A DNA stretch of 64,000 bases from Elusimicrobiota bacterium (GTDB lineage Bacteria > Elusimicrobiota > Elusimicrobia > JACQPE01): positions 1,559-65,558 of the forward strand of contig JACQPE010000004.1 in the NCBI GenBank assembly GCA_016207685.1, written 5' to 3'. The notes under the pieces were generated by a model. That model saw only the letters and a list, made by a program, of their open reading frames with translations. It searched no databases and was not told where the DNA came from. Shown in pieces: positions 3,683 to 61,321 of this stretch. How positions within the stretch are numbered: the first letter of the stretch is position 1; each line of letters opens with the position of its first letter. The translations under genes were made by a program, and so were the position numbers.

Positions 3683-5263
3683 TTACGGCGCGAATAATAA
3701 AAAAACGACCACGCCCAAAATGACCGCTGTTGCGGCGGCAGCCACGGTGGCCTTGGCTATTTTCTGCGTTTGGGTATCCTCCCTGGAATCCCCTCGTATC
3801 CGGCGCCATTTTCTGGATTCCTCCGGCGTTAATCCGGTGGAAGACGCCGTTTCTTCCTTATAGTCAATGGTCAATACCTTTTTTTGAAAATTACCCGCGG
3901 CATCCACCGCCGCAATAACCATACGATTTTCTCCTAATTGCAGCGTTGTCTCCATCGAAAAATACCCTTGGCTGTCTGTATCGGCAGATGTCGCTCCCAA
4001 GCGGATGAGCGCCCCGGGCTCCGATCGCCCCTGGATGACCAACGAATTTTTCTTTATCGTTGAGAATTCTTGTTCGGGCTCAGTGATATCCAAAAATGGC
4101 GCTTGGCGGTCCAACGCTAATTTTTGCCAATCGCCAAATGGCCCTTCAAAACCCAAACGATCACGCAAAGAGACCCGATAAACATAAAGTCCGTCATCCA
4201 AACCAGTCCGACCAAAATCAAAAGGTTCCTCAAACGTAGCTGTTTCATCCCAAAGTAAAACGCCCTCCGGGGACTGCGCCACTTGAACACGCAGCAAAGA
4301 AACTTGAGGTATTCTCCGCATGATCCCGGCGCCGCGGCGGCTGCTTCCCATAACCCAACCCAAGGCGCTTCCTCGAAGAACAAAATTCCCTTGGTCTGAA
4401 ATCGTCTTTGTTGATGTAACTACGGATTCAGAATCCCAAAACTTCTCTATCACCACCCGGTTAGGAACTTCCGGCACAGGAACTGCTTGACCCGGAGGCC
4501 GGCCCGCAGGCACCTCCGTGGCAAAACCTTGACGCACAGAAACAGTTTGATTTTGCGCTTGAACATCAGCGACGCCCGCATAAACCTCAACCACTGTGGC
4601 CAAATCTTCGCGTACTCGGGCGCGGTATTCCACATTTTTCGATTTTGGCGTGATTCGGGCCGATTGGGTAACCACGCGAGCGCCCAAAGACCGAATTTCT
4701 CCTGAAATCAGCGCGGCCTCTCCAATGTTTTGCGCACCGGCGCGCTCAGGGCGTATAACGGCAAAAGATTGAGGTCCCAGGACCAAGTCTTCCCCTTGCG
4801 CGAAACGCACCCGCGCTTGGGAGAGCGCGCCGGTGCGCAAGCCGTCATCTTGCCAAATATCCATATTTTTCGAGGCGACTTTCCACAAGGGGGACTCCCG
4901 CCGCCGAAGCTCCACCAGCCGCTGAGTTTCCATGAGCTTAGCTGATCGCAGGCTTTCTTTTACCAATAAAACAGGAATTCTCAAGGTTTGCCCGGGTAAA
5001 GCCATGGCGGGATCCGATGTCGGCAGCTTGTTGTGCCGGGCAATTTCAGGCCAACGGCTAGGGTCCTTGAGATAACGCTCGCTTAAGGACCACCATGTAT
5101 CCCCGGGCTCAATAGCCACTTCTTGATAGAAGCGGGACTCTTCCGCGAAGATAAAATTCCATGTTCCAAGTTCTAGGCTCCAAGTCGAAAATAAAAAAAT
5201 CCCAGCGATTCGGCATCTTGTTTTGAACCGGGAACTGGGAACCGGGAACTGGGAACTAATCAT
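3683..5263 (-). CDS. LysM domain-containing protein with C-terminal transmembrane anchor
   Basis: LysM-like [20 protein letters not shown]...LPGQTLRIP; C-terminal hydrophobic [20 protein letters not shown]; ATG lies 2 nt after the histidine kinase stop (translational coupling); 5' codons are made of the heptamer repeat, so the true start is uncertain. Confidence 0.55.
5225..5256. repeat. heptanucleotide tandem repeat (GAACYGG)x4.5
   Basis: read directly: gaaccgg gaactgg gaaccgg gaactgg gaac, spanning the histidine kinase stop and the start of the LysM gene. Confidence 0.9.
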
Positions 5264-8818: not shown

Positions 8819-8928
8819 CGCAGGCCGGTTTTCAAATCCCCCCTTTCAAATCATTCATGATCGTCGTTAGATTCTAGGTTTCCAAAATTTTGCTCATATC
8901 TATGACCCCTGACCCTGCATATTTTACT

Positions 8929-9867
8929 TTACGCGCGGGGATGGGTTCTCTCGTAGACTTTTTTGAGATTGGACGGCGTGAGCGCCGTGTAAATCTGGGT
9001 TGCCTCCAATGATTTGTGACCCAGCATCTCTTGAAGATGGCGCAAGTCCAAACCCGCCAAGAGCAGGTGCGTGGCAAAAGAATGGCGAAGTTGATGCGGT
9101 GTGACCCGCGTTCCCAAAGCCGCGCGGCCCAAGAGCCGAAGGCGGGACTCCATGAGAACTCTTGAAAGCGGACGGCCCTGTTTATTAGAAAAAATCACGC
9201 CGTCGCCTTTTCGGGACAAATGAGGCCACTGCCGGGACCGCTCGGTCAAATACTCCCGAAGCGCCGTCAGAGCTTGTCCTCCAATGGGAACCAAACGCTC
9301 TCTGGCCCCCTTGCCAAAAATGCGCAATGATCCGGCATCCCAATGGACCGCCCCGGGCAGCAAACTTAAAAGCTCGCTGATGCGAAGTCCCGATGAGTAT
9401 AGAATTTCAAGCGCGGCCCAATCACGCATCGCTGCGAGCCGCCCGCGGCCCCTGGCGTCATCGGTCTTTTTTTTCGCCAAAGCCAAAAGCGCCGACATTT
9501 GATCCGTTGAAAGGGCTCTAGGCAACGTTCTTGAGCGCTTCAGACGGCGCCCAAATCCCAACAAAGAAACCGCCGACGCCAACCGCCACTGGGGTTCGCG
9601 ACTTAAATATTTAATCCAACCCCGAAGGCTTGAAATCCGGCGCGCCAAGGTAGCCGCCGCCCGTGACAACTCTTCCCTTTCTCGAGCCAAATAAGCCCGC
9701 AACAATTGACGATTTAAGTCGGCAACGGATTCGACTTGATGATCCCGTGCATAATCGGCAAAATCATGGAGGTCCAACCGGTAGGATTCCTGGGTATTAA
9801 AAGCCAGCCCCCGGCGCGTGCGCAAATGCGCCAAATAAACCTCAATGGACCGAAGCAGGTCAGACAC
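8929..9867 (-). CDS. tyrosine site-specific recombinase, XerC/XerD family
   Basis: catalytic C-terminus HQLRHSFATHLLLAGLDLRHLQEMLGHKSLEATQIYTAL (R...HxxR...Y); 312 aa like chromosomal Xer. Confidence 0.8.
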   Translation of the reverse strand: MSDLLRSIEVYLAHLRTRRGLAFNTQESYRLDLHDFADYARDHQVESVADLNRQLLRAYLAREREELSRAAATLARRISSLRGWIKYLSREPQWRLASAVSLLGFGRRLKRSRTLPRALSTDQMSALLALAKKKTDDARGRGRLAAMRDWAALEILYSSGLRISELLSLLPGAVHWDAGSLRIFGKGARERLVPIGGQALTALREYLTERSRQWPHLSRKGDGVIFSNKQGRPLSRVLMESRLRLLGRAALGTRVTPHQLRHSFATHLLLAGLDLRHLQEMLGHKSLEATQIYTALTPSNLKKVYERTHPRA

Positions 9868-9877
9868 AAATAAAAAA

Positions 9878-9895
9878 GTCCAACGTCCAATGTCC
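9878..9895. repeat. heptamer array (GTCCAAY)x2.6
   Basis: gtccaac gtccaat gtcc; inverse complement of the array at 9934..9960. Confidence 0.8.
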
Positions 9896-9933
9896 GCTTT
9901 TTAAAATTTGAAGTAGGGAATTAAAAATTCCAT

Positions 9934-9960
9934 GACTTTGGATTTTGGACTTTGGACTTT
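9934..9960. repeat. heptamer array (GAYTTTG)x4
   Basis: gactttg gattttg gactttg gacttt; the same unit recurs at 24520..24550. Confidence 0.85.
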
Positions 9961-9981
9961 TTTCGTGATCTCCGCCATTTA

Positions 9982-12234
9982 TTATTTAGGCAAACTCTTC
10001 GTGTTGCGGCATTTAGGAAACCCTGAGCACGCCAAGAACGGCCCCCTGGGCCCGACACGTTTAAGAAGAAACTTGCCGCATTTTTCGCATTTGAATTCGG
10101 TGATCTCGGGCGCCGGACGGATGACCTTGTTTCCTTGACGGTCTAGACTGATGCTCGTTTTGCACTTCGGATAATCCTGACACGCCAAGTAAAAAAGCCC
10201 GCGCAAGCCTCGCTTCTTAAACATCAACTTACCGCATTTGGGACATTTTTCCTGCGTGACTTCAGGCTCCAAGGGATTGCCCTCTGTATCCAACGACATT
10301 TTATTTGTGCATGTTTCAGGATTATTCTCGCACATCAAGTACTTGCCGAAGCGCCCCTCCTTTAGCAGCATCACGCCGCCGCAGCGGCGGCATTTGTGGC
10401 CTGAATCTTTGGGAACCACGCTGACCTTGCCCATGGCTTTTTGAGCCTTTTGAATCTCCTTGTCAAAAGGCTTATAAAAAGCCTCGATCACCTTTTGCCA
10501 GGGGCGCTCCCCCTCGGCGATGAGATCCAAATCTTCCTCCATTTGGGCCGTAAAGGACAAATCCACCACGTCAGGAAAATGACCTTTAAGCTGTTCGATC
10601 ACCACTTTGCCGATTTCATTGGGATAAAATCGCCGCTCTTTAAGATACACATAGCCTCGGTCAACAACCGTAGCCAACGTCGGAGCGTAGGTAGACGGCC
10701 GTCCAATGCCGTGCTCTTCAAGAGTGCGCACTAGGCTGGCCTCATTGTAGCGCGGCGGAGACGAAGTTTCATGAGACCTGGCCTCAAGCGCATTCGGGAC
10801 GCCTGCCAAAGCCAATGATTCCCCTTCCTTCAGGGCCGGTAAACTCGACGGCTCGTCTCCCTCTCCTTCTTGATAATCTTCGTAGAGTCTCAAAAATCCG
10901 TCAAAAACCAGCCGCCGTCCGGTCGCGCGAAATTTCGCCTGGCCGCCGGCGTCGGCAATCTCAACGGTCATGACATGATAGAGCGCATCCTCCATTTGAC
11001 TCGCTAAAAACCGCCGCCAAATCAAATCATACAAGGCCCCATGGTCCTTTCCTCCCTGATCGCGCGCCATCTTGTACGCCAGCGCGTCTTTGTCCTGATA
11101 AACCGATGTGGGCCGGATCGCTTCATGCGCCTCTTGAGCGCCTTTGGTTTTTGTTTTATAAACAGGAATTTGGGCCGGATAATAATTTTTCCCAAAATTC
11201 TTGGCAATAAAATCCCGCGCCTGCTCCTGGGCCGATCGAGCGACATTGACCGAATCCGTGCGCATATAGGTGATAAAACCGTTCTCGTAAAGCCCCTGGG
11301 CCACGCGCATAGTGCGCTGGGCTGAAAATCCCAGCGCTTGAGACGCCGCCTGGGTCATCGTTGATGTCGTGAAGGGAGCGGCCGGGGAGCGTTTGCGGTC
11401 GGCCTCATCAAGCTTGCTGATACGCAAGGGCAACTGACGCAGTCGCGCGGTCGCCGCCTGCGCTGAAGCGTCATCCTTAAAGATGGTTGATTGGACTTTA
11501 TAAGTTTGAGCAAATAATTGATGCGTCCTTGTCTCGCCCACGACAGAGCCTTGCCACTCCACAAGTTCGGAGCTGAATGTCGCGCCGTTTTTTTCAAATA
11601 TCCCATGAATGCTCCAATAGGTTTCCCTGGCGAATTGATCAATTTCCTTCTCGCGTTCCACAATAAGCCGCACGGTTACCGATTGCACGCGTCCGGCCGA
11701 AAGCCCGCGGCGCACCTTGGCCCAAAGCAAGGGTGAGAGCTTGTAGCCCACCAGCCGGTCTAAAACCCGGCGGGCTTGCTGCGCCGAGACTAGATTTAAG
11801 TCAAGGCCGCGCGGATGCCCGATCGCCTCTTTAATGGCGTCTTTCGTGATTTCATGAAAAACAACCCTCTTGATTTTTGACGCGGGCAGCTTAAGCGTCT
11901 CAACCAAATGCCACGCGATGGCCTCGCCTTCCCTGTCATAGTCCGTGGCCAAAAAAATTTCCTTGGCCCCACGGGAAGCGCTCTTCAGTTCCGAGATCAC
12001 TTTGGTCTTTTTTTCAATGACCACGTATTGAGGCTCAAAATTCTTCTCCAAATCAACCCCAAGATCGCGCTGCGGTAAATCCCGAATATGGCCCATGCTG
12101 CTCTTAACGACAAAATTTTTTCCCAAAAATCCGGCGATCATGCGCTGCTTGGTCGGCGACTCGACGATCACGAGGGCGCCTCCGGAAGACGAGGTTCCTC
12201 TAGCTGCGCTCATAGCCATAGGCGCCGCTGACAA
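9982..12234 (-). CDS. topA: DNA topoisomerase I
   Basis: TOPRIM N-terminus GALVIVESPTKQRMIAGFLGKNFVVKSSMGHIRDL; C-terminal repeated CxxC...CxxC zinc-ribbon modules. Confidence 0.9.
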   Translation of the reverse strand: MSAAPMAMSAARGTSSSGGALVIVESPTKQRMIAGFLGKNFVVKSSMGHIRDLPQRDLGVDLEKNFEPQYVVIEKKTKVISELKSASRGAKEIFLATDYDREGEAIAWHLVETLKLPASKIKRVVFHEITKDAIKEAIGHPRGLDLNLVSAQQARRVLDRLVGYKLSPLLWAKVRRGLSAGRVQSVTVRLIVEREKEIDQFARETYWSIHGIFEKNGATFSSELVEWQGSVVGETRTHQLFAQTYKVQSTIFKDDASAQAATARLRQLPLRISKLDEADRKRSPAAPFTTSTMTQAASQALGFSAQRTMRVAQGLYENGFITYMRTDSVNVARSAQEQARDFIAKNFGKNYYPAQIPVYKTKTKGAQEAHEAIRPTSVYQDKDALAYKMARDQGGKDHGALYDLIWRRFLASQMEDALYHVMTVEIADAGGQAKFRATGRRLVFDGFLRLYEDYQEGEGDEPSSLPALKEGESLALAGVPNALEARSHETSSPPRYNEASLVRTLEEHGIGRPSTYAPTLATVVDRGYVYLKERRFYPNEIGKVVIEQLKGHFPDVVDLSFTAQMEEDLDLIAEGERPWQKVIEAFYKPFDKEIQKAQKAMGKVSVVPKDSGHKCRRCGGVMLLKEGRFGKYLMCENNPETCTNKMSLDTEGNPLEPEVTQEKCPKCGKLMFKKRGLRGLFYLACQDYPKCKTSISLDRQGNKVIRPAPEITEFKCEKCGKFLLKRVGPRGPFLACSGFPKCRNTKSLPK

Positions 12235-13384: not shown

Positions 13385-14239
13385 TCAGTCTTGTTCATTG
13401 CGGCGCGGCAAGCGCATCACGCCGTCGCCCAAAGAAATCGCGTCGTGGGAATAAATGATTTGGCACTCCGCGCGCTCATCAAAAACCTCATCGGTCACGC
13501 GCACTCTGCCGACGCGCTCGATGAGCCAATAACGCTTGCGTGTTCGCGGATCCGTCGCCTGCCGGGTCTTGCGAATAACCGCTAATTCATCTCCTGGCAC
13601 CAGCCCATCTCTGGACCCTAGGCTAATAAAAATAATGTCCCCCTGCGAGAGCATCACCAACTCCTTGTCGCGGCTGGAAATGATCCGGCCGTCATAATTC
13701 GTGAACTCTCTCTGACGAATAATCCGCCGCTGGGAATTGGTCGCGGTGGATACGGCCATTGTCCCTTCGCTTCCATCGCCCGCAGGAATATCGCTTTCAG
13801 CGGCCTCGGCCACGGGGGTCATTCCGGCCTTGGTTTCTGCGCCCCGTGGTTCTTGTTGAGGCTTGGCCGCCGCCATTGTTGGTTGTTCAGAAGCCTGATG
13901 TTCGGATGCGCCCAATTTTTTTATATCCCCCCTGGAGGCCCCGGAAACATAATCCGGCCCCGGCAGCTTTAATACCTGCCCGGGAACAAGTTGATTAGGA
14001 TCTTTCAAGATGTCGCGATTGATGTCATAAATCGCGCTCCAATCATAACCGTTTTCCCTGAATAAAACCGCGATCTGCCAAAGGGTGTCGCCTTTAACGA
14101 CAACGTAGCGCTCCTCCAAAATTTCCTCTTCGGCCCCGGCCGCGCTGATCTGACATAAAACGCAAGCGGCCATGGCCGCTTGAATAAATATTATCTTTCG
14201 TGACCCCTGACCCCTGACCCATGACCGCTTATTCCTCAT
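13385..14239 (-). CDS. secreted LysM domain protein
   Basis: LysM YVVVKGDTLWQIAVLF...VPGQVLKLP; start moved to MRNKRSW (14239) to avoid a 71-nt overlap with comM; N-terminus reads as a signal peptide and its first codons are the (TGACCCC)n repeat. Confidence 0.55.
   Translation of the reverse strand: MRNKRSWVRGQGSRKIIFIQAAMAACVLCQISAAGAEEEILEERYVVVKGDTLWQIAVLFRENGYDWSAIYDINRDILKDPNQLVPGQVLKLPGPDYVSGASRGDIKKLGASEHQASEQPTMAAAKPQQEPRGAETKAGMTPVAEAAESDIPAGDGSEGTMAVSTATNSQRRIIRQREFTNYDGRIISSRDKELVMLSQGDIIFISLGSRDGLVPGDELAVIRKTRQATDPRTRKRYWLIERVGRVRVTDEVFDERAECQIIYSHDAISLGDGVMRLPRRNEQD
14201..14226. repeat. heptamer array (TGACCCM)x3.7
   Basis: tgacccc tgacccc tgaccca tgacc; a 2-unit copy (tgacccctgaccctg) occurs at 8903..8917. 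Confidence 0.9.
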
Positions 14240-15901: not shown

Positions 15902-16543
15902 ATGCTCATCGAACTAAATCCTATTGAAGCGCGCCTATTGGGCTCTCTGGTTGAAAAATCCCTGACAACGCCGGGGCTTTATCCGCTGACTTTTAACTCG
16001 CTGATCAACGCTTGCAATCAAAAAACAAACCGGGACCCGGTTATGAGCCTTGATGCGGACACGGCCGGCAAAGGCATCCAAACGCTCATCGAAAAGGGCC
16101 TTGCCGAGCGCCTGCAGCTTCCGGGGGACCGCGTCCCAAAATTTAAGCATCACATCGAGAAACTCTTAAACGGCGCTGATTCAAAACTAATCGGAACAAT
16201 CTGCGTGCTGCTACTTCGAGGGCCTCAAACCCCCGGCGGAATCAAAACGCGCACGGACCGCTTGTGCACCTTCACCGGCACCGCCGAAGTGGAAGGCCTC
16301 CTACAAAAACTTTGTGCTAGAAGCGAGGACCCCTTGGTCGCGCGCCTGCCACGTCAACCGGGACAAAAAGAAACCCGCTATCAGCACCTCTTGGGCGGGC
16401 CCATCGCCCATGCGCCGGCAGAGCCATTCCCAAAAATCGTCCCGCCTTCGGCAGACCGCCTAAGCAACCTGGAAACACGGGTCGGAGCCCTGGAAGCCTT
16501 CGTCAAAACTCTTCAACTCCAACCCCCGCGTAATCAGACCTAA
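15902..16543 (+). CDS. DUF480 (YceH/UPF0502-like) protein
   Basis: N-terminus MLIELNPIEARLLGSLVEKSLTTPGLYPLTFNSL typical of YceH family. Confidence 0.55.
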   Translation: MLIELNPIEARLLGSLVEKSLTTPGLYPLTFNSLINACNQKTNRDPVMSLDADTAGKGIQTLIEKGLAERLQLPGDRVPKFKHHIEKLLNGADSKLIGTICVLLLRGPQTPGGIKTRTDRLCTFTGTAEVEGLLQKLCARSEDPLVARLPRQPGQKETRYQHLLGGPIAHAPAEPFPKIVPPSADRLSNLETRVGALEAFVKTLQLQPPRNQT

Positions 16544-16550
16544 ATTCTCA

Positions 16551-16578
16551 AAAATGTAAAATGTGTAGATGTGACCCC
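16551..16578. repeat. 28-nt intergenic element, copy 1 (aaaatgtaaaatgtgtagatgtgacccc)
   Basis: its reverse complement matches 26 of 28 nt of 31339..31366; it fills the gap between convergent genes. Confidence 0.85.
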
Positions 16579-16583
16579 AATCC

Positions 16584-17340
16584 TTATTGGATTTTTTGAA
16601 GCACATACATCACATTTTTGACAGACCAAAGCCGAAGCCGTAAAACCAATTGTGCCACTCGCGTCAAAAAAATGGACCACTTCATCCGATTGTTCGTCAT
16701 GAACAGAAATCTGGTTAGCAAACGGGGATCAAGGCCGTTGATCACCAACTCTACCCCGCGCGGAAATTTCATATTTGCCGGCCTGATGCATTGATCATGC
16801 CCCTGACCATGACGTATAAAAATAAGCCCCCCGGGCGCCAAGAGATCGACATACTCTGCCAGAACCTTCCGGTGGACCTCCCCGGCTTCTTTCGCCGAGC
16901 TAAAAAATTTCCGGGTAAATGGATGGAACTCCCGGATATAAATCAAATCGTACCGGCCTTGCGCCACGTCTCGGTTGGCTTTGGGATCCGTGCCATCGGC
17001 CACCAAAAAATTGACACCCTCCACGGAACCGTTTCTTTGGCGAGCGATTGCAACTCCCGCATCGGACAAGTCAAAGGCGGTTACTTCTTTCGCTAAGCAC
17101 CGCAGTGCCAGCGTCAAATGTCCCAGACCGCAGCCGACCTCAAGACACCGCCGGATTGTGTGTGTGTGTGTGTGTGTGCTTTTCTATCAGAACAGAAACC
17201 AAATAAACATCTTTAAATACGCGCCATTTCTCCACGATGGTGCTGTTGTGTTCGACCTTGGGGTCGCCTCGGGCATACCCAGCGTTTTGACCGCGCACAT
17301 GATCCATCATCTTATCTCGAACAAAATCAATGTTCCCCAT
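16584..17340 (-). pseudogene. class I SAM-dependent methyltransferase with reading frame broken at a (CA)11 tract (possibly phase-variable rather than dead)
   Basis: Rossmann motif I LEVGCGLGHLTLALR is in frame with ORF 16584..17117 but upstream of its TTG start; the N-terminal part is ORF 17140..17340 ending ...EKHTHTHTH-NPAVS*; one extra CA unit would fuse the two frames. Confidence 0.5.
17157..17178. repeat. (TG)11 dinucleotide microsatellite
   Basis: read directly: 22 nt of alternating tg. Confidence 0.95.
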
Positions 17341-24390: not shown

Positions 24391-24415
24391 CGTCCGGCGT
24401 CCGGCGTCCGGCGTC
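24391..24415. repeat. heptamer array (CGTCCGG)x3.5
   Basis: cgtccgg cgtccgg cgtccgg cgtc, 15 nt upstream of the murD start codon. Confidence 0.9.
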
Positions 24416-24519
24416 TTAAGCCTGAAAATAAAAAATTTAATAATGAAATCAGAGAGTGTAACAATGGAAAAATGAAAATCCGAAAATCCAAACTTCCATA
24501 CTCCAAATTTTTTTGATTT

Positions 24520-24550
24520 GACTTTGGACTTTGGACTTTGGACTTTGGAC
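24520..24550. repeat. heptamer array (GACTTTG)x4.4
   Basis: gactttg gactttg gactttg gactttg gac, ending 5 nt from the mraY stop codon. Confidence 0.9.
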
Positions 24551-24554
24551 TTCT

Positions 24555-28204: not shown

Positions 28205-30589
28205 ATGAAAACACCCTCTGCAATAATGGCCCGCCTGGATTACGGCCCCAATCCCGAAACAACCAAAGTCCATTTTAAGCCGATTTATGATCTTTTTATT
28301 AACAATGAATGGGCGCCACCGATATCCGGAAAATACTATGACACCATCAATCCGGCCGCGGGCAAAGCGCTGGCCAAGATTGCCTGGGGCAATGAGCTTG
28401 ATATTGACCGCGCCGTCAAGGCCGCCCAAGAAGGATTTAAAACATGGAAATCTTATTCCCCCTCCGAGCGCAGCCGTCTGATCTTCGCTTTGGCCCGTAT
28501 CATCCAAGAACGCTCCCGCGAATTGGCCATTGCCGAAACGCTCAATAACGGTAAGCCCATTCGCGAATCGCGTGACATTGATATTCCATTGGCGGCGCGG
28601 CACTTTTTCTACCACGCGGGATGGGCCGACAAACTGGAATCAGCATTTGCCGATATTACGATCGCACCCCTGGGCGTTGTCGGTCAAATCATCCCTTGGA
28701 ATTTCCCCTTTCTCATGCTGGCTTGGAAAGTGGCTCCCGCATTGGCTGCCGGCAATGCCGTGATCTTAAAACCCGCGGAAACCACGCCCCTAACAGCGCT
28801 TTTATTTGCCGATATCTGCCGTGATGCAGGGCTGCCGCCAGGCACCGTTAACATCGTCACCGGGCACGGCGACACAGGCGCCGCCTTGGCCAACCACCCA
28901 GGCGTGGCCAAAATCGCTTTTACCGGTTCGACCGAAGTGGGGAAATTAATCCGCAAGGCCACGGCCGGTTCAGGCAAAAAACTGTCCCTCGAACTCGGCG
29001 GTAAATCCCCAACGATTATCTTCGAGGATGCGCCGCTCTATCAAGCCGTTGAAGGCATCGTGGACTCAATTTTCTTTAACCAAGGCCAGGTGTGCTGCGC
29101 CGGCTCCAGACTGTTGCTCGAAGAAAGCATCGCTCCCAAATTTATCGAACTTCTGAAAGACCGGATGGCCAAAATTCGCGTCGGCGACCCCATGGATAAA
29201 AATACGGATATGGGCGCCATTAACTCTCAAGATCAGCTTGATAAAATCCGCCATTACGCCAAAATCGGACAAGATGAGGGAGCCTGCTTGTGGCAAGCTC
29301 CTTGCGAGCTGCCCAAACAGGGTTTTTTCTTTCCCCCAACGATTTTTACGGAAGTTCAAACCACTCATACGATTGTTCAAGAAGAAATTTTCGGCCCGGT
29401 GCTTTCCATCCTGACATTCAGAACCGTGAACGAAGCCGTGGAACTGGCCAATAACACGCCCTATGGCCTGGCTGCGAGCGTCTGGACTAAAGATGTGTCC
29501 AAGATGGTGGCTGTATCGCGAACGCTCAAAGCGGGCACCGTCTGGGGCAATGGCACGAATAAATTCGATGCAGCCGCCGAATTCGGCGGACACAAAGAAT
29601 CCGGCTTTGGCCGCGAAGGCGGTTTGCAGGGACTATGGGAGTACTTGCAAGTTCAAAGTTCAAAGTCCGAAGTCCGAAGTCTCGATGAAATCTACCGCAA
29701 CGCCTCACCGCAACCCGCAACCCGCAACCCGCAACCCGCAACTCATGTATGGAAAACGCCGAAGATGCTCATCGGCGGCAAGCAGGTTCGCACGGAATCA
29801 GGCCGTTATTACAAAATCAACGCCGCCAACGGCCAAAAACTTCTTGCCGATGTTAATCAAGGCTCGCGTAAAGACATTAGAGATGCCGTTGAAGCGGCGC
29901 ATGCCGCTTTGCCTGGATGGTCCAAAACCACGGCCTACAATAGAGGCCAAATTCTCTACCGCATGGCCGAGATGCTTTCCTCCCGCGCCTCTGAATTCGC
30001 CCATGCCATTGCCGCCCAAACAGGGAGTTCCTGGGAAGATGCCGCAGGTGAAGTTTCCTTAACCATCCAACGCCTGCTCCACTATGCCGGCTGGTCGGAT
30101 AAATACACGGGGAGCGTCAATCCCGTGACACAAACGGACTTTAACATCACCTACCCGGAAGCCGTCGGCGTCGTCGCTTTATTCGCGCCCAACACCCGGC
30201 CCCTCTTGGGCCTCATCAGCAAATTAGCGCCCGCTTTTGCAGCCGGCAACACGAGCGTCGTCGTTGCCTCCGAGCAATTTCCCCTAAGCGCCACGGACTT
30301 TATTGAAATTTTAGACAGCTCGGACGTCCCTGCGGGCGTCATTAACATCATAACCGGATTGCATGAAGAACTCCTGCCCACTGTAGCCGAACACCGCGCC
30401 GTGGGCTTGATTGATGTTTCAGGACCCGCCGCACGGGTTAAAATAGCCGAGGAGCTTTCGATCAGCAACCTCAAACGCGTTTATCATGACCCGGAAATGC
30501 CGGATTGGACATCTCCCGAAGCCCAAGGCCGATTGTGGATGCGCCGCTACCTGGAATTTAAAACCGTCTGGATCACCAGCGGCTTTTAA
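28205..30589 (+). CDS. aldehyde dehydrogenase fused in frame to a second, truncated ALDH-like module
   Basis: module 1 complete (LSLELGGKSP, catalytic FFNQGQVCCAGSRLL, end ...GLWEYLQVQ); heptamer-encoded linker SSKSEVRS...PQPATRNPQPAT; module 2 from Met 29765 (MLIGGKQV...) has ALDH N-terminal/NAD-binding-like sequence but no catalytic Cys/Glu region. Confidence 0.7.
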   Translation: MKTPSAIMARLDYGPNPETTKVHFKPIYDLFINNEWAPPISGKYYDTINPAAGKALAKIAWGNELDIDRAVKAAQEGFKTWKSYSPSERSRLIFALARIIQERSRELAIAETLNNGKPIRESRDIDIPLAARHFFYHAGWADKLESAFADITIAPLGVVGQIIPWNFPFLMLAWKVAPALAAGNAVILKPAETTPLTALLFADICRDAGLPPGTVNIVTGHGDTGAALANHPGVAKIAFTGSTEVGKLIRKATAGSGKKLSLELGGKSPTIIFEDAPLYQAVEGIVDSIFFNQGQVCCAGSRLLLEESIAPKFIELLKDRMAKIRVGDPMDKNTDMGAINSQDQLDKIRHYAKIGQDEGACLWQAPCELPKQGFFFPPTIFTEVQTTHTIVQEEIFGPVLSILTFRTVNEAVELANNTPYGLAASVWTKDVSKMVAVSRTLKAGTVWGNGTNKFDAAAEFGGHKESGFGREGGLQGLWEYLQVQSSKSEVRSLDEIYRNASPQPATRNPQPATHVWKTPKMLIGGKQVRTESGRYYKINAANGQKLLADVNQGSRKDIRDAVEAAHAALPGWSKTTAYNRGQILYRMAEMLSSRASEFAHAIAAQTGSSWEDAAGEVSLTIQRLLHYAGWSDKYTGSVNPVTQTDFNITYPEAVGVVALFAPNTRPLLGLISKLAPAFAAGNTSVVVASEQFPLSATDFIEILDSSDVPAGVINIITGLHEELLPTVAEHRAVGLIDVSGPAARVKIAEELSISNLKRVYHDPEMPDWTSPEAQGRLWMRRYLEFKTVWITSGF
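29651..29685. repeat. heptamer array (GTYCRAA)x5 inside coding sequence
   Basis: gttcaaa gttcaaa gtccgaa gtccgaa gtctcga. Confidence 0.9.
29709..29743. repeat. heptamer array (CGCAACC)x5 inside coding sequence
   Basis: cgcaacc x4 then cgcaact; encodes PQPATRNPQPAT in the ALDH frame. Confidence 0.9.
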
Positions 30590-30692: not shown

Positions 30693-31337
30693 ATGCTCCA
30701 TCCTGATTTAAAGGATATTATAACGAGCCGGTTTTTGCTGGGGGGCTTGATTATTGGATTTTTAAGCGCCACGCCCTTGGGCCCCATCGGCGTTCTGTGC
30801 ATCAATCGGACGTTAACTAAGGGCAAATCGGTCGGCGTCGCCTCCGGCTTCGGCACGGCGGCAGCCGACGCTATTTACAGTTGCGTGGCTGGATTCGGTC
30901 TGCGCCTGATAAGCGCCCTCATCAACGGCCAGCATTTCTGGTTTCGCCTGACCAGCGGCCTATTAATCTGCGGCTACGGTCTTAAAACATTCTTCGCCAA
31001 ACCGCCGCACCCTGCGGACAGACAACGCCTTAAAGGTCTTTTGAGCGCCTTCCTGTCCACATTCTTGCTAACTCTGGCCAACCCAACCATTATTATCAGC
31101 TTCATGGCCATATTTGCCGGTTTAGGGGTAGCCCATACGCACGGCAACCGCCTGCTGGCCGCAGAATTGGTGGGCGGTGTTTTCCTTGGCGCCCTTTTTT
31201 GGTGGGCGGCTTTCAACAGTTTAATCAGCGTATTCCCGGTAAAGCTCAATGACAACGGCCTCAAATGCTTTAACAAAGTCTCTGGCGTCGCGATTATCGG
31301 CCTAGGCCTTCTCGCGCAGTTCTTTTTAGAAACCTAG
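30693..31337 (+). CDS. LysE/RhtB family amino-acid exporter
   Basis: six-TM protein with N-terminus LGGLIIGFLSATPLGPIGVLCINRTLTKG typical of the LysE translocator family. Confidence 0.75.
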   Translation: MLHPDLKDIITSRFLLGGLIIGFLSATPLGPIGVLCINRTLTKGKSVGVASGFGTAAADAIYSCVAGFGLRLISALINGQHFWFRLTSGLLICGYGLKTFFAKPPHPADRQRLKGLLSAFLSTFLLTLANPTIIISFMAIFAGLGVAHTHGNRLLAAELVGGVFLGALFWWAAFNSLISVFPVKLNDNGLKCFNKVSGVAIIGLGLLAQFFLET

Positions 31338-31338
31338 C

Positions 31339-31366
31339 GGGGTCACATCTCTACATTTTACATTTT
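31339..31366. repeat. 28-nt intergenic element, copy 2 (ggggtcacatctctacattttacatttt)
   Basis: inverted copy of 16551..16578 (26/28 identical); it fills the gap between convergent LysE and HExxH genes. Confidence 0.85.
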
Positions 31367-31367
31367 G

Positions 31368-32135
31368 TCAACGATTAACGCTGACGGCTCGAATAAAATT
31401 ATCCTGGGGACTCCTGTCCTGGGTTAAACGCTCCAGGCCCAGCAGGTAATAAATTTTTGCCGCTTCCAGAGGAGCATCCCTTTCCAATTCTTCAAGAGCG
31501 CGCTCATTAAACCGGTAAGGCGAGACCGCTCGGTCAATGGTGGCGATTTGTTTCGGCGACAAAGACAAGGCCTCGCCGCCTTGGAAATCCCCCAGCGCAT
31601 CTTGACACGCGTCATAGTGGAGGTCCCGCAGGATTGCCGTTTCCCGAAGATCCCAGCCGCCCTCCAGGCAGAGGAGCCCTTGCGCCCAATGACGGCGCAA
31701 GGGCTCCTCAATGGCTGCTTCTCCCGCCAGCTCCTCGGCTTCGGCAAATCCCCCGATACCAAGTTCATGACTGAACAAATGCCACATTTCATGACGCAAT
31801 GTCCGCCATAAAAGCAGTCTCCGAATCTTCTGGTCGGCAATGAGCCGGAAATGAGGATGGATCAAAATTAAATCGCTTTCAGGATCATAGACGGCGGCGG
31901 CGCGTTCCCGGCGTTTCCCTTTAGTTTCAATCGGCTCATCGTTGTAGCGAACAAGAATGGGATTATCCTCGTCAACCACATTTTTAATCACTTGACCGAT
32001 AAAATCATCCGCCAAAATGATCCAGGTTAAATCTTCAGCTAAATAGGAATCGGGCGATTGAATCGCTTCCGGCAGGCTGGCCCATAAAAAACCTGGCGCC
32101 GCGGCCAACAGAACGACTCTCCGAAAAACCCTCAT
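31368..32135 (-). CDS. secreted protein with HExxH zinc-metallopeptidase-like motif
   Basis: signal peptide MRVFRRVVLLAAAPGFLWASL; LRHEMWHLFSHELG. Confidence 0.4.
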   Translation of the reverse strand: MRVFRRVVLLAAAPGFLWASLPEAIQSPDSYLAEDLTWIILADDFIGQVIKNVVDEDNPILVRYNDEPIETKGKRRERAAAVYDPESDLILIHPHFRLIADQKIRRLLLWRTLRHEMWHLFSHELGIGGFAEAEELAGEAAIEEPLRRHWAQGLLCLEGGWDLRETAILRDLHYDACQDALGDFQGGEALSLSPKQIATIDRAVSPYRFNERALEELERDAPLEAAKIYYLLGLERLTQDRSPQDNFIRAVSVNR

Positions 32136-38800: not shown

Positions 38801-38813
38801 GGCGGACAATAGA

Positions 38814-38848
38814 GTTCCAAGTTCCAAGTTCCAAGTTCCAAGTTCAAA
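38814..38848. repeat. heptamer array (GTTCMAA)x5
   Basis: gttccaa x4 then gttcaaa, 14 nt upstream of the ftsI start. Confidence 0.9.
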
Positions 38849-38896
38849 ATGGAAAAGGGCCAAAAAAAGCAGGGCTTCTTTTCCCTCTTGACTTTT

Positions 38897-38924
38897 AACT
38901 TGGAACTTGGATATTGGAACTTTC
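38897..38924. repeat. heptamer array (AACTTGG)x4, inverse complement of 38814..38848
   Basis: aacttgg aacttgg atattgg aactttc. Confidence 0.85.
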
Positions 38925-39203: not shown

Positions 39204-39250
39204 TCGCGCCGCCTTGAAAAACCAAAAGAATGCCGAATGCCGGAATCTAA

Positions 39251-39360
39251 AACGTCGAATTTCGAACGTCGAATTAAGGAACAGGGAAAATTTTGAATTT
39301 TAAATTTTGAATTTTGAATTAAGGAATTCATTTTATTTGTCATTTGAGATTCGTCATTCG
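39251..39360. repeat. compound short-tandem-repeat region: (CGTCGAA/TTTCGAA)x3, (AATTTTR)x4, (GTCATTY)x2
   Basis: aacgtcgaatttcgaacgtcgaatt ... ttttgaattttaaattttgaattttgaatt ... gtcatttgagattcgtcattcg; related to 51470..51506. Confidence 0.85.
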
Positions 39361-40265: not shown

Positions 40266-40670
40266 GCATTACCGGCGGCATCTGCCGGAGGGCCGCCCTT
40301 CATCTATTACAGATCGAGGGAGGAAATTCCGAACTCCGCAGAGCCAGGGTGCCGTCTAAAAGGCGGGGCGCCCGTTGGAGACAACCGGCGCACGGACAGT
40401 GCCACAGAAACGAAACCACCCCATGATCCGTCACGATTAAGGGGAACGGGTGAAACCGTGAGGTAAAAGCTCACGCAGAATCATAGAAATATGAATCCGG
40501 AGGAAAACCCCACCTGGAGCAAGGCTGGATTTAGGAAAACTCCGCCAGGTCAGGCTCAAGACCGGGGTTCCTAAGTCCCTGCAAAGCAGAACGCCGCTTA
40601 GATAAATGGTCCTCGCTTGATTTTTACATCAAGCACAGAATTCGGGGTACAGGCAAGCCGCCGGTAATGC
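40266..40670 (+). ncRNA. rnpB: RNase P RNA (bacterial type)
   Basis: P4-region block GAGGAAAUUCCGAACUCCGCAGAGCCAGGGUGCCG (cf. GAGGAAAGUCCGGGCUCC...GGGCAGGGUGCCAGG); also CACGGACAGUGCCACAGAAACGAAACCACC, GGUGAAACCGUGAGGUAAAAGCUCAC and CCACCUGGAGCAAGGCUGGAUUUAGG; 14-bp terminal helix gcattaccggcggc/gccgccggtaatgc. Confidence 0.8.
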
Positions 40671-60022: not shown

Positions 60023-60094
60023 TGTCCCCAAGTGGAATTGAACCACTATCTTTGCCTTCGCAGGGCAACACTCTATCCGTTGAGCTATGGGGAC
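60023..60094 (-). tRNA. tRNA-Arg, anticodon GCG
   Basis: cloverleaf folded by hand from GTCCCCATAGCTCAACGGATAGAGTGTTGCCCTGCGAAGGCAAAGATAGTGGTTCAATTCCACTTGGGGACA; acceptor 7 bp, Arg-type D-arm, anticodon loop CTGCGAA. Confidence 0.75.
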
Positions 60095-60765: not shown

Positions 60766-60854
60766 GGAGAGATGCGTGAGCGGTTGAAACGGCACGCCTG
60801 GAAAGCGTGTATAGCCGAAAGGCTATCGAGGGTTCGAATCCCTCTCTCTCCGCA
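60766..60854 (+). tRNA. tRNA-Ser, anticodon GGA
   Basis: class II tRNA: acceptor GGAGAGA/TCTCTCC, D-loop GAGCGGTTGAA identical to E. coli tRNA-Ser, anticodon loop CTGGAAA, long variable arm TAGCC-GAAA-GGCTA, T-loop TTCGAAT; T-run follows. Confidence 0.85.
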
Positions 60855-61321
60855 CTTTTTTAGAGAAAAAGTACGGTTCGGACGGCCCCTGCTCGGAGGG
60901 CAGGGACCCTTGAAGCGCCTGAGGCGCGTTGAGCCGGAGGCGCTGGGACGAATATAAAATATGTCCCATTCTCTCCGCAGAAGTTGACAGATTTCAAAAC
61001 TCTACCGCAAGAAAGCCGCGTTCATGTTGGGCAACGGGCGGAGCAATAGCTCAACCGTCTTTCTAGGCCATTCATGGTTGAGATTATCCTCCGTTGTGGG
61101 TATCCCAGCGCCTCGGCGCACACAACAATCCCTGTTTTTGGGGCTCAATAGGTTCATTTGCATTATGGCCTGTCGTTTTGCTGTCTACGCTTCACGACCA
61201 GCGTCGCCGAGGACCTTGCAAGACGCGCTACGACCCTGCGGGCTAGGCTTTGGGTTGATGGAACTTGCATCCATTGGATTTCTACGGCTTTCCTGGCGCA
61301 GGGGGGTTAGGGGTTAAAAAA

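Follow-up and report, generated by a model that had tools for sequence, protein, structure and literature searches.

The DNA analysed in the present study was a 64-kb stretch of an Elusimicrobiota genome, referred to below as the window. Two convergent gene junctions in the window are each nearly filled by one copy of a 28-nt element. The features of the two junctions are listed here, and the flanking genes are given as context only.

15902-16543, plus strand: DUF480/YceH gene (Pfam PF04337, E=6.6e-50), with its stop 7 nt before copy 1.
16551-16578, minus strand: copy 1 of the element, very likely a solo TIR (see below), with the minus-strand reading GGGGTCACATCT-AC-ACATTTTACATTTT; the layout is an outer GGGGWSAS terminus, then a variable NN, then the inner ACATTTT twice; the family profile matches at 16551-16583 (E=1.8e-9).
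16584-17117, minus strand: SAM-methyltransferase ORF (Pfam Methyltransf_11/25), with 5 nt between its stop and the GGGG end of copy 1.
30693-31337, plus strand: LysE-family gene (Pfam PF01810, E=6.3e-12), with 1 nt between its stop and the GGGG end of copy 2.
31339-31366, plus strand: copy 2 of the element, again very likely a solo TIR, reading GGGGTCACATCT-CT-ACATTTTACATTTT; the family profile matches at 31338-31367 (E=7.4e-9).
31368-32135, minus strand: gene for a HExxH protein of 255 aa, with 1 nt between its stop and the inner end of copy 2.

The pair of copies had been pointed out in a sequence-only reading of the same DNA, and its description of them was confirmed. The 28-mer AAAATGTAAAATGTGTAGATGTGACCCC was located at 16551-16578 (+), and a second copy in the opposite orientation at 31339-31366 (-) showed 26/28 identity to the reverse complement of the first. 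In 100 dinucleotide-preserving shuffles, no match with three or fewer mismatches was obtained, giving a chance expectation of 0 for such a pair. A repeat finder independently recovered the same pair as inverted repeat I4. The junctions were also as described: the DUF480 stop at 16543 and the methyltransferase stop at 16584 left a convergent gap of 40 nt, and the LysE stop at 31337 and the HExxH stop at 31368 left one of 30 nt. Pfam supported the DUF480, Methyltransf_11/25 and LysE assignments. The database protein identical to the DUF480/YceH product is named 'YceH family protein [Elusimicrobia bacterium]'. The HExxH protein gave no Pfam match, and its sole match among 5.8 billion clustered proteins was itself (HY547_00240), indicating that it is an orphan. 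Four DUF480 orthologues with 70-74% identity were found. Because their downstream neighbours differed, synteny was lost and no orthologous junction 1 was present among them. No copy of the element was found in 84 kb from related Elusimicrobiota.

The methyltransferase gene beside copy 1 was interrupted near its 5' end by a (TG)11 tract (17157-17178), with one minus-strand ORF on either side (16584-17117 and 17140-17340). The SAM-binding motif LEVGCGLG was in frame just after a THTHTHT stretch, with stop codons before it, and the N-terminal part lay in another frame. The interruption could reflect pseudogenisation by a frameshift, phase variation or an assembly error.

The wider occurrence of the element was determined by a scan with its 20-base core over one genome per bacterial species. 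A cyanobacterial MAG (L002) carried the same sequence as two inverted copies separated by about 27 nt, and a verrucomicrobial MAG (L003) had several direct copies. With the degenerate consensus GGGGTCRCRTCTNNAMATTKTACRT, matches were obtained in 90 metagenome stretches of soil, lake and sediment origin and in 0 viral contigs. Alignment of 77 distinct units yielded the conserved span (AAT)GGGGTCRCRTCT-NN-AMATTKTACATTT, with unconserved flanks on both sides. The profile of these 77 units had exactly two matches in the window, namely the two reported copies, with E values of about 1e-9. The results indicated that Elusimicrobiota, Cyanobacteria, Verrucomicrobia and lineages from soil share this sequence almost base for base. 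No invariant position of the family is changed in either window copy, and the two differ from each other only at the variable NN (positions 13-14); two differences placed at random would both land on this dinucleotide with a probability of about 0.003. In the inner half of the element, ACATTTT is exactly duplicated (31352-31366).

Over all sequences collected, the profile gave 183 matches; excluding L001, a read-set contig with the same sequence as a part of the window, reduced the number to 182. Among these 182 matches, 79 were solo copies, and 59 neighbouring pairs were observed. Thirty-five of the pairs were inverted doublets with the GGGG ends pointing outward and a sharply peaked spacing, 21 were tandem and 3 faced inward. 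The outward pairs included 24 distinct complete doublets, mostly 79-82 nt long with a few up to 104 nt, in which a spacer of about 26 nt separated two arms of 27 nt. All 24 were predicted to fold into long hairpins (dG -26 to -48 kcal/mol). No recognisable target-site duplication and no defined target were seen at the doublet ends; in one subfamily, the inverted repeat extends outward (caat...attg) instead. Within the doublets, the outer 12 bp of the arms always pair, and positions 14, 16 and 20 are often mismatched. Co-variation between the arms was weak (permutation p ~0.04) and was confounded by subfamily structure. According to the family profile, the window copies are solo, with no partner within 150 nt. 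The sequence-only reading had placed an imperfect partial inverted copy at 16603, which was not supported: the family profile did not detect it even at E<=100, its local-alignment score of 10 was equalled by 0.5% of random 51-nt windows, and it has no GGGGTC terminus and lies within the methyltransferase ORF. Such a partner would also make the GGGG ends face each other, which is the orientation of only 3 of the 59 neighbouring pairs.

Several further observations were made on the doublets and on the ends of the copies. In the high-GC 'caat' subfamily (L009, L028, L035, L043, L049, L050, L066 and L073), the arms were nearly identical and the spacer length of 26 nt was kept, while the spacers had no obvious common sequence and a host-like G+C content. 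The two doublets of L002 (247-326 and 1369-1448) had homologous spacers, about 19/26 identical by eye. Many TIR copies carried short partial tandem duplications outside the GGGG end that included the terminus, for example ggcaatggggtcggaaggcaatGGGGTC and gaagtaaatggggaagtaaatggggg.gaagtaaatGGGGTC. These were located in L003 (2811-2830), L006 (~9392-9420), L013 (~10690-10726), L036 (~397-436), L041 (~2670-2700), L062 (~180-210) and L072 (~169-208). The terminal duplications suggest that slippage, or a series of abortive events, took place at the end of the element.

The repeat was found to be associated with a gene for a Y1 transposase. In L003, three to four copies lie directly upstream of a 346-aa ORF, and a further inverted copy overlaps the stop of this ORF (...ATG TAC AAT GTC AAG ACG TGA cccc). 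The product matched Pfam Y1_Tnp (PF01797, E=1.7e-13) and showed a weak DnaA C-terminal match; its best NCBIfam match was REP_Tyr_transpos (REP-associated tyrosine transposase), at 64 bits and below the 80-bit cutoff. About ten loci selected by the motif had a Y1 gene adjoining a motif copy. In L056, a gap of 30 nt separates the left TIR (GGGGTCACATCTATACATTTTACATTT) from the downstream gene, and the right TIR supplies the last codons and stop of this gene (...GAA ATG TCA AAT GTA TAG ATGTGACCCC). L052 is arranged in the same way, with a left TIR and a right TIR that overlaps ...AAT GTA TAG. Each window copy shared 26 of 28 positions with the left TIR of L052 and L056, the same level of identity as between the two window copies.

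Because selection by the motif would make the association circular, the choice of four independent loci (L101-L104) relied solely on homology of their proteins to the enzyme of L056 (58-68% identity). The motif bracketed the gene in every one of them, and the right copy always overlapped a TAG stop. In three of the four, the left copy preceded the start codon by about 25-30 nt; in L104 it abutted the called GTG start. More than 6000 proteins were related to the L056 enzyme at E<=1e-10. They are typically 328 aa long, combine PF01797 (Y1_Tnp) with PF08299 (Bac_DnaA_C), and are often annotated by JGI as 'REP element-mobilizing transposase RayT'. HUH motifs (NHYHLL or NHFHLV) and a YIHxNP motif were visible in the translations of the associated proteins. 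These results demonstrated that the repeat and the Y1 gene occur together in loci collected without reference to the repeat. In the 64-kb window, neither a gene of this type nor a remnant of one was detected by tblastn or with a 61-sequence profile (best E 0.48), so the linkage in this Elusimicrobiota is inferred from other organisms.

In seven of the loci, representing about five independent lineages, the transposase gene adjoined a large gene for an RHS/YD-repeat protein (L003, 44-2476; L052, 3423-7907; L059, 1029-5537; L101, 804-5462; L102, 2742-7436; L103, 1-3396; L104, 5032-9546). Small unannotated ORFs often lay between the two genes, and L102 had a PT-HINT ORF downstream. In L077, a fragment of the transposase gene lay beside an S_4TM (SMODS-associated) effector gene. 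The excerpts of the two comparative studies considered next (PMC3733652 and PMC6006769) make no mention of an association with RHS genes.

A matching arrangement has been described in those studies. Di Nocera et al. 2013 (BMC Genomics 14:522; PMC3733652), in the sections that bear on it, describe RAYT-like genes that are flanked by long TIRs and not by REPs; the genes were named TIRYTs (TIR-associated tyrosine transposase) and the units TIRtrons. The same sections give a common GGGGWSAS motif, TIRs that overlap the gene ends (the '3'ov' arrangement of a figure legend), and moderately abundant TIR families whose copies are single, dimeric or grouped. In the corresponding parts of Quentin et al. 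2018 (BMC Genomics 19:475; PMC6006769), 20 of 26 TIRYTs are placed in TnpA-REP subclass 2.1, which is marked by a C-terminal Bac_DnaA_C/HTH_23/HTH_28 domain. The TIR consensus is given there as GGGG[AT][CG]A[CG], no REP-like hairpins are reported near subclass 2.1 genes, and the TIR is stated to be unlike the DnaA box. In the literature searched, TIRYTs were mentioned by these two bioinformatic works alone (PMC3733652, PMC6006769), and no experimental study was found.

The element resembles the TIRtron TIRs in several respects. Both window copies begin with GGGGTCAC, which fits GGGGWSAS (W=T, S=C, A, S=C) and likewise GGGG[AT][CG]A[CG]. In the related loci, two inverted copies of the element flank a gene for a Y1_Tnp plus Bac_DnaA_C protein, and the 3' copy overlaps the end of this gene. 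Dispersed copies in other organisms are single, dimeric or grouped and lie in intergenic DNA with a 3'-end bias. Unlike the published TIRtrons, the 64-kb window contains only orphan repeats and no TIRYT gene. The host also differs, since it belongs to the Elusimicrobiota, a phylum not named in the excerpts of those accounts. The likeness shown here is to the published consensus.

REP and REPIN elements are reportedly mobilised by RAYTs (TnpA-REP; Nunvar 2010, Bertels & Rainey 2011, Ton-Hoang 2012), and the present family shares much with them. It is short, non-autonomous and intergenic, and it is tied to a usually rare Y1 gene that is flanked by repeats. Its inverted doublets of about 80 nt fold into long hairpins as REPINs do, singlets are common, and there is a bias toward gene 3' ends. 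In contrast to a REP, the 28-mer contains no palindrome or stem-loop (MFE 0 kcal/mol on both strands), and in contrast to a REPIN, the window copies are solo and do not form two inverted units, although relatives elsewhere do form doublets. The REP superfamilies are defined by a GTAG or CGTC tetranucleotide tag, as stated in the relevant section of PMC3733652. No such tag was found in the element: the window copies have no CGTC and no palindrome to be tagged, and GTAG occurs only internally, in the variable region of copy 1. The TIR-associated protein also differs from REP transposases in falling below the NCBIfam REP_Tyr_transpos cutoff and in carrying an extra HTH domain.

The family was also compared with MITEs derived from DDE-type IS or from Tn3-family elements. 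As in these MITEs, a short non-coding core lies between two TIRs, the whole measuring about 80 nt, and solo ends occur as relics. In contrast to DDE-derived MITEs, the linked transposase is a Y1 HUH enzyme, and the doublet ends show no recognisable target-site duplication. The ends of Tn3-family transposons also start with GGGG; they are 38 bp long and carry an inner ACGYTAAG motif, which is absent from the element. CRISPR repeats, Tn3-family and Tn7-like ends, the cyanobacterial STRR heptamers and the DnaA box were rejected as candidates, as their sequences do not fit and the linked gene encodes a Y1 transposase.

The placement of the family relative to genes was then assessed with rough longest-ORF gene calls, which gave 59 classifiable intergenic sites. 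Convergent junctions accounted for 22 of these 59 sites (37%), compared with 100 of 429 background junctions (23%; Fisher p=0.018). Divergent junctions were slightly depleted (15% vs 20%), and this difference was not significant. A modest convergent bias of this kind is usual for REP/MITE-type repeats, which favour gene 3' ends. The sequence-only reading had taken the shared tail-to-tail topology of the two window loci as a sign of function at convergent junctions, and these figures give that argument little weight. Its recognition of a genuine repeat family, as opposed to a coincidence, stands; its view of the element as a terminator or a junction-specific element is not supported.

Collectively, the results suggested that the window 28-mers are very likely solitary TIR copies of the TIRtron/TIRYT family, the conserved ends of a transposon-like unit that a TIRYT would mobilise. 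Our confidence in the assignment to the TIRYT/TIRtron family is high. Our confidence in mobilisation by a TIRYT is moderate, because this part rests on analogy. A complete unit consists of a gene for a Y1 (HUH) tyrosine transposase of the REP-transposase lineage, with a C-terminal DnaA-C-like helix-turn-helix domain, placed between two inverted copies of GGGGTC(A/G)C(A/G)TCT-NN-A(C/A)ATT(T/G)TACATTT. The left TIR usually precedes the start codon by about 25-30 nt, and the right TIR encodes the last codons and the stop. The TIR also spreads without the gene, as inverted doublets of about 80 nt, tandem clusters and single intergenic copies. HUH Y1 transposases, such as the TnpA of IS200/IS605 and TnpA-REP, cut and rejoin single-stranded DNA. 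By analogy with these enzymes, a TIRYT whose gene lies at another place in this Elusimicrobiota genome, or has since been lost from it, may recognise the TIR and mobilise TIR-bounded DNA by single-strand cleavage and rejoining. The doublet of about 80 nt would then be the likely non-autonomous unit, and the solo copies may be by-products or decay remnants of mobilisation events. The copies in the tiny convergent gaps would be surviving harmless insertions and not terminators; putative insertions at such sites would survive because no promoter or coding sequence is disrupted. If the repeat is a footprint of a mobile element, the genome would therefore have, or have had, a TIRYT transposase.

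Three other explanations were weighed against mobilisation by a TIRYT. The one that survives best holds that the solo TIRs are retained, host-useful binding sites, which are bound in double-stranded form by the DnaA-C-like HTH of a TIRYT or by another host protein. The family would then be domesticated and not selfish, as has been argued for REP/RAYT systems. That both window copies keep the invariant positions and differ only at the tolerated NN points either to recent origin or to constraint, and leaves room for this explanation. TIRYTs carry an HTH domain. The doublet arms keep the recognition consensus over perfect complementarity, as seen in the weak co-variation and the mismatches at positions 14, 16 and 20, and one subfamily keeps its spacer length and not its sequence, which could mean a long-term constraint on the arms. 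However, the same pattern is expected from recent insertions of two slightly different master copies, and the homologous spacers of the L002 doublets (19/26) are as expected for the copying of a unit. The TIR is unlike a DnaA box, according to the part of Quentin et al. (PMC6006769) that deals with it, and the element is absent from the 84 kb of related Elusimicrobiota and is therefore not a conserved host feature. We consider retention as binding sites unlikely. The more specific proposal, in which the solo TIRs are double-stranded docking sites for the TIRYT HTH, maintained at the ends of genes, and the TIRYT/TIR pair is a domesticated host DNA-handling system, appears quite unlikely.

The sequence-only reading had regarded the element as a functional repeat, possibly a bidirectional terminator or a protein-binding element. 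It may indeed be a protein-recognition element, whereas the terminator half of the proposal was not supported. If the element were a bidirectional intrinsic terminator, or a 3'-end RNA stabiliser for both convergent genes, its position would fit: both copies lie 1-7 nt from stop codons in convergent gaps, copy 1 is followed by a weak 5-bp hairpin and a T-run, and REP-type repeats elsewhere have been reported to affect mRNA 3' ends (PMC3733652, in the section concerned). However, the 28-mer is unstructured on both strands, as noted above, and contains no T-tract. At junction 1, folding was no better than that of shuffled sequences (z=0.13 and -1.55). The minus strand of junction 2 did fold better than shuffles (z=-3.75), but this fold draws on flanking gene sequence that is absent from junction 1 and has no U-tract. 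No combination of a hairpin and a T-tract was common to both junctions. A scan with a terminator consensus found no site at either junction, and Rfam gave no match there. The four Rfam matches in the window all lay elsewhere, and they were as follows.

40275-40665, plus strand: RNase P RNA class A.
60023-60094, minus strand: tRNA.
60766-60852, plus strand: tRNA.
61092-61267, minus strand: group II intron domain (D1-D4-6), close to the tRNAs.

In addition, most family copies are away from convergent junctions. The same sequence also brackets the transposase gene and stands upstream of its start codon, a position that is not explained by a terminator role. A terminator or RNA-stabilising function is thus highly improbable.

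The least credible explanation is that the element arose from the tandem-heptamer process of this genome and not by transposition, as four units of 7 nt (AAAATGT AAAATGT GTAGATG TGACCCC): the window is rich in period-7 arrays (8 perfect ones), ACATTTT is exactly duplicated in the inner half of the element and a (TGACCCC)3.7 array lies at 14201, but the array units are unrelated, GGGGTCAC is not over-represented beyond the two copies, and the same 27-28-nt sequence occurs in cyanobacterial, verrucomicrobial, soil and lake contigs without heptamer arrays, a cross-phylum conservation because of which a heptamer origin is largely refuted. The sequence-only reading had also stated that the element ends in the GTGACCCC motif that seeds heptamer arrays at 8903 and 14201, and this tie did not exceed chance. 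The window contains three occurrences of GGGGTCAC, compared with an expectation of 1.08. Because two of the three occurrences are the copies themselves and the third begins the 14201 array, the tie to the (TGACCCC)n array is at chance level. The 8903 site has only the 7-mer in common with the element.

The heptamer arrays are a feature of the window in their own right, since nearly all of its tandem repeats have a period of 7. Perfect tandem arrays of at least 18 nt numbered 8 at period 7 and 0 at periods 5-6 or 8-12, and their units were unrelated (TGACCCC, CGTCCGG, GACTTTG, AAGTTCA, AAGTCCG, CCGCAAC, AGTTCCA and AATTTTG). TRF gave about 20 period-7 rows in the window, and no period-7 arrays were found in the 84 kb from related Elusimicrobiota. 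The arrays lie at 5157-5257, 9872-9963, 14201-14226, 24391-24552, 29649-29742, 38813-38922 and 39228-39320, among others. Several of them pair as inverted copies 44-47 nt apart and form hairpin-forming doublets (I1, I19). Three adjacent arrays at 29649-29742 (AAGTTCA, AAGTCCG and CCGCAAC x5) lie inside the plus-strand ORF 28205-30589. The product of 794 aa looks like two fused aldehyde-dehydrogenase-like halves, with an array-encoded linker (...SPQPATRNPQPATH...).

The analysis removes a false lead, in that the repeat is neither a new terminator nor a junction-specific regulator. The TIRYT family is known but little studied, it is spread over many bacterial phyla, and the Elusimicrobiota are a new host lineage for it. 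If the TIRYT/TIR pair did prove to be domesticated, it might serve, for example, in targeted recombination or cassette exchange at RHS polymorphic-toxin loci. The TIRYT/TIR family is very large, and almost all bases of its 27-nt site are kept from phylum to phylum. The collected loci provide a clean anatomy for the study of non-hairpin end recognition by a Y1 transposase with a DnaA-like domain.
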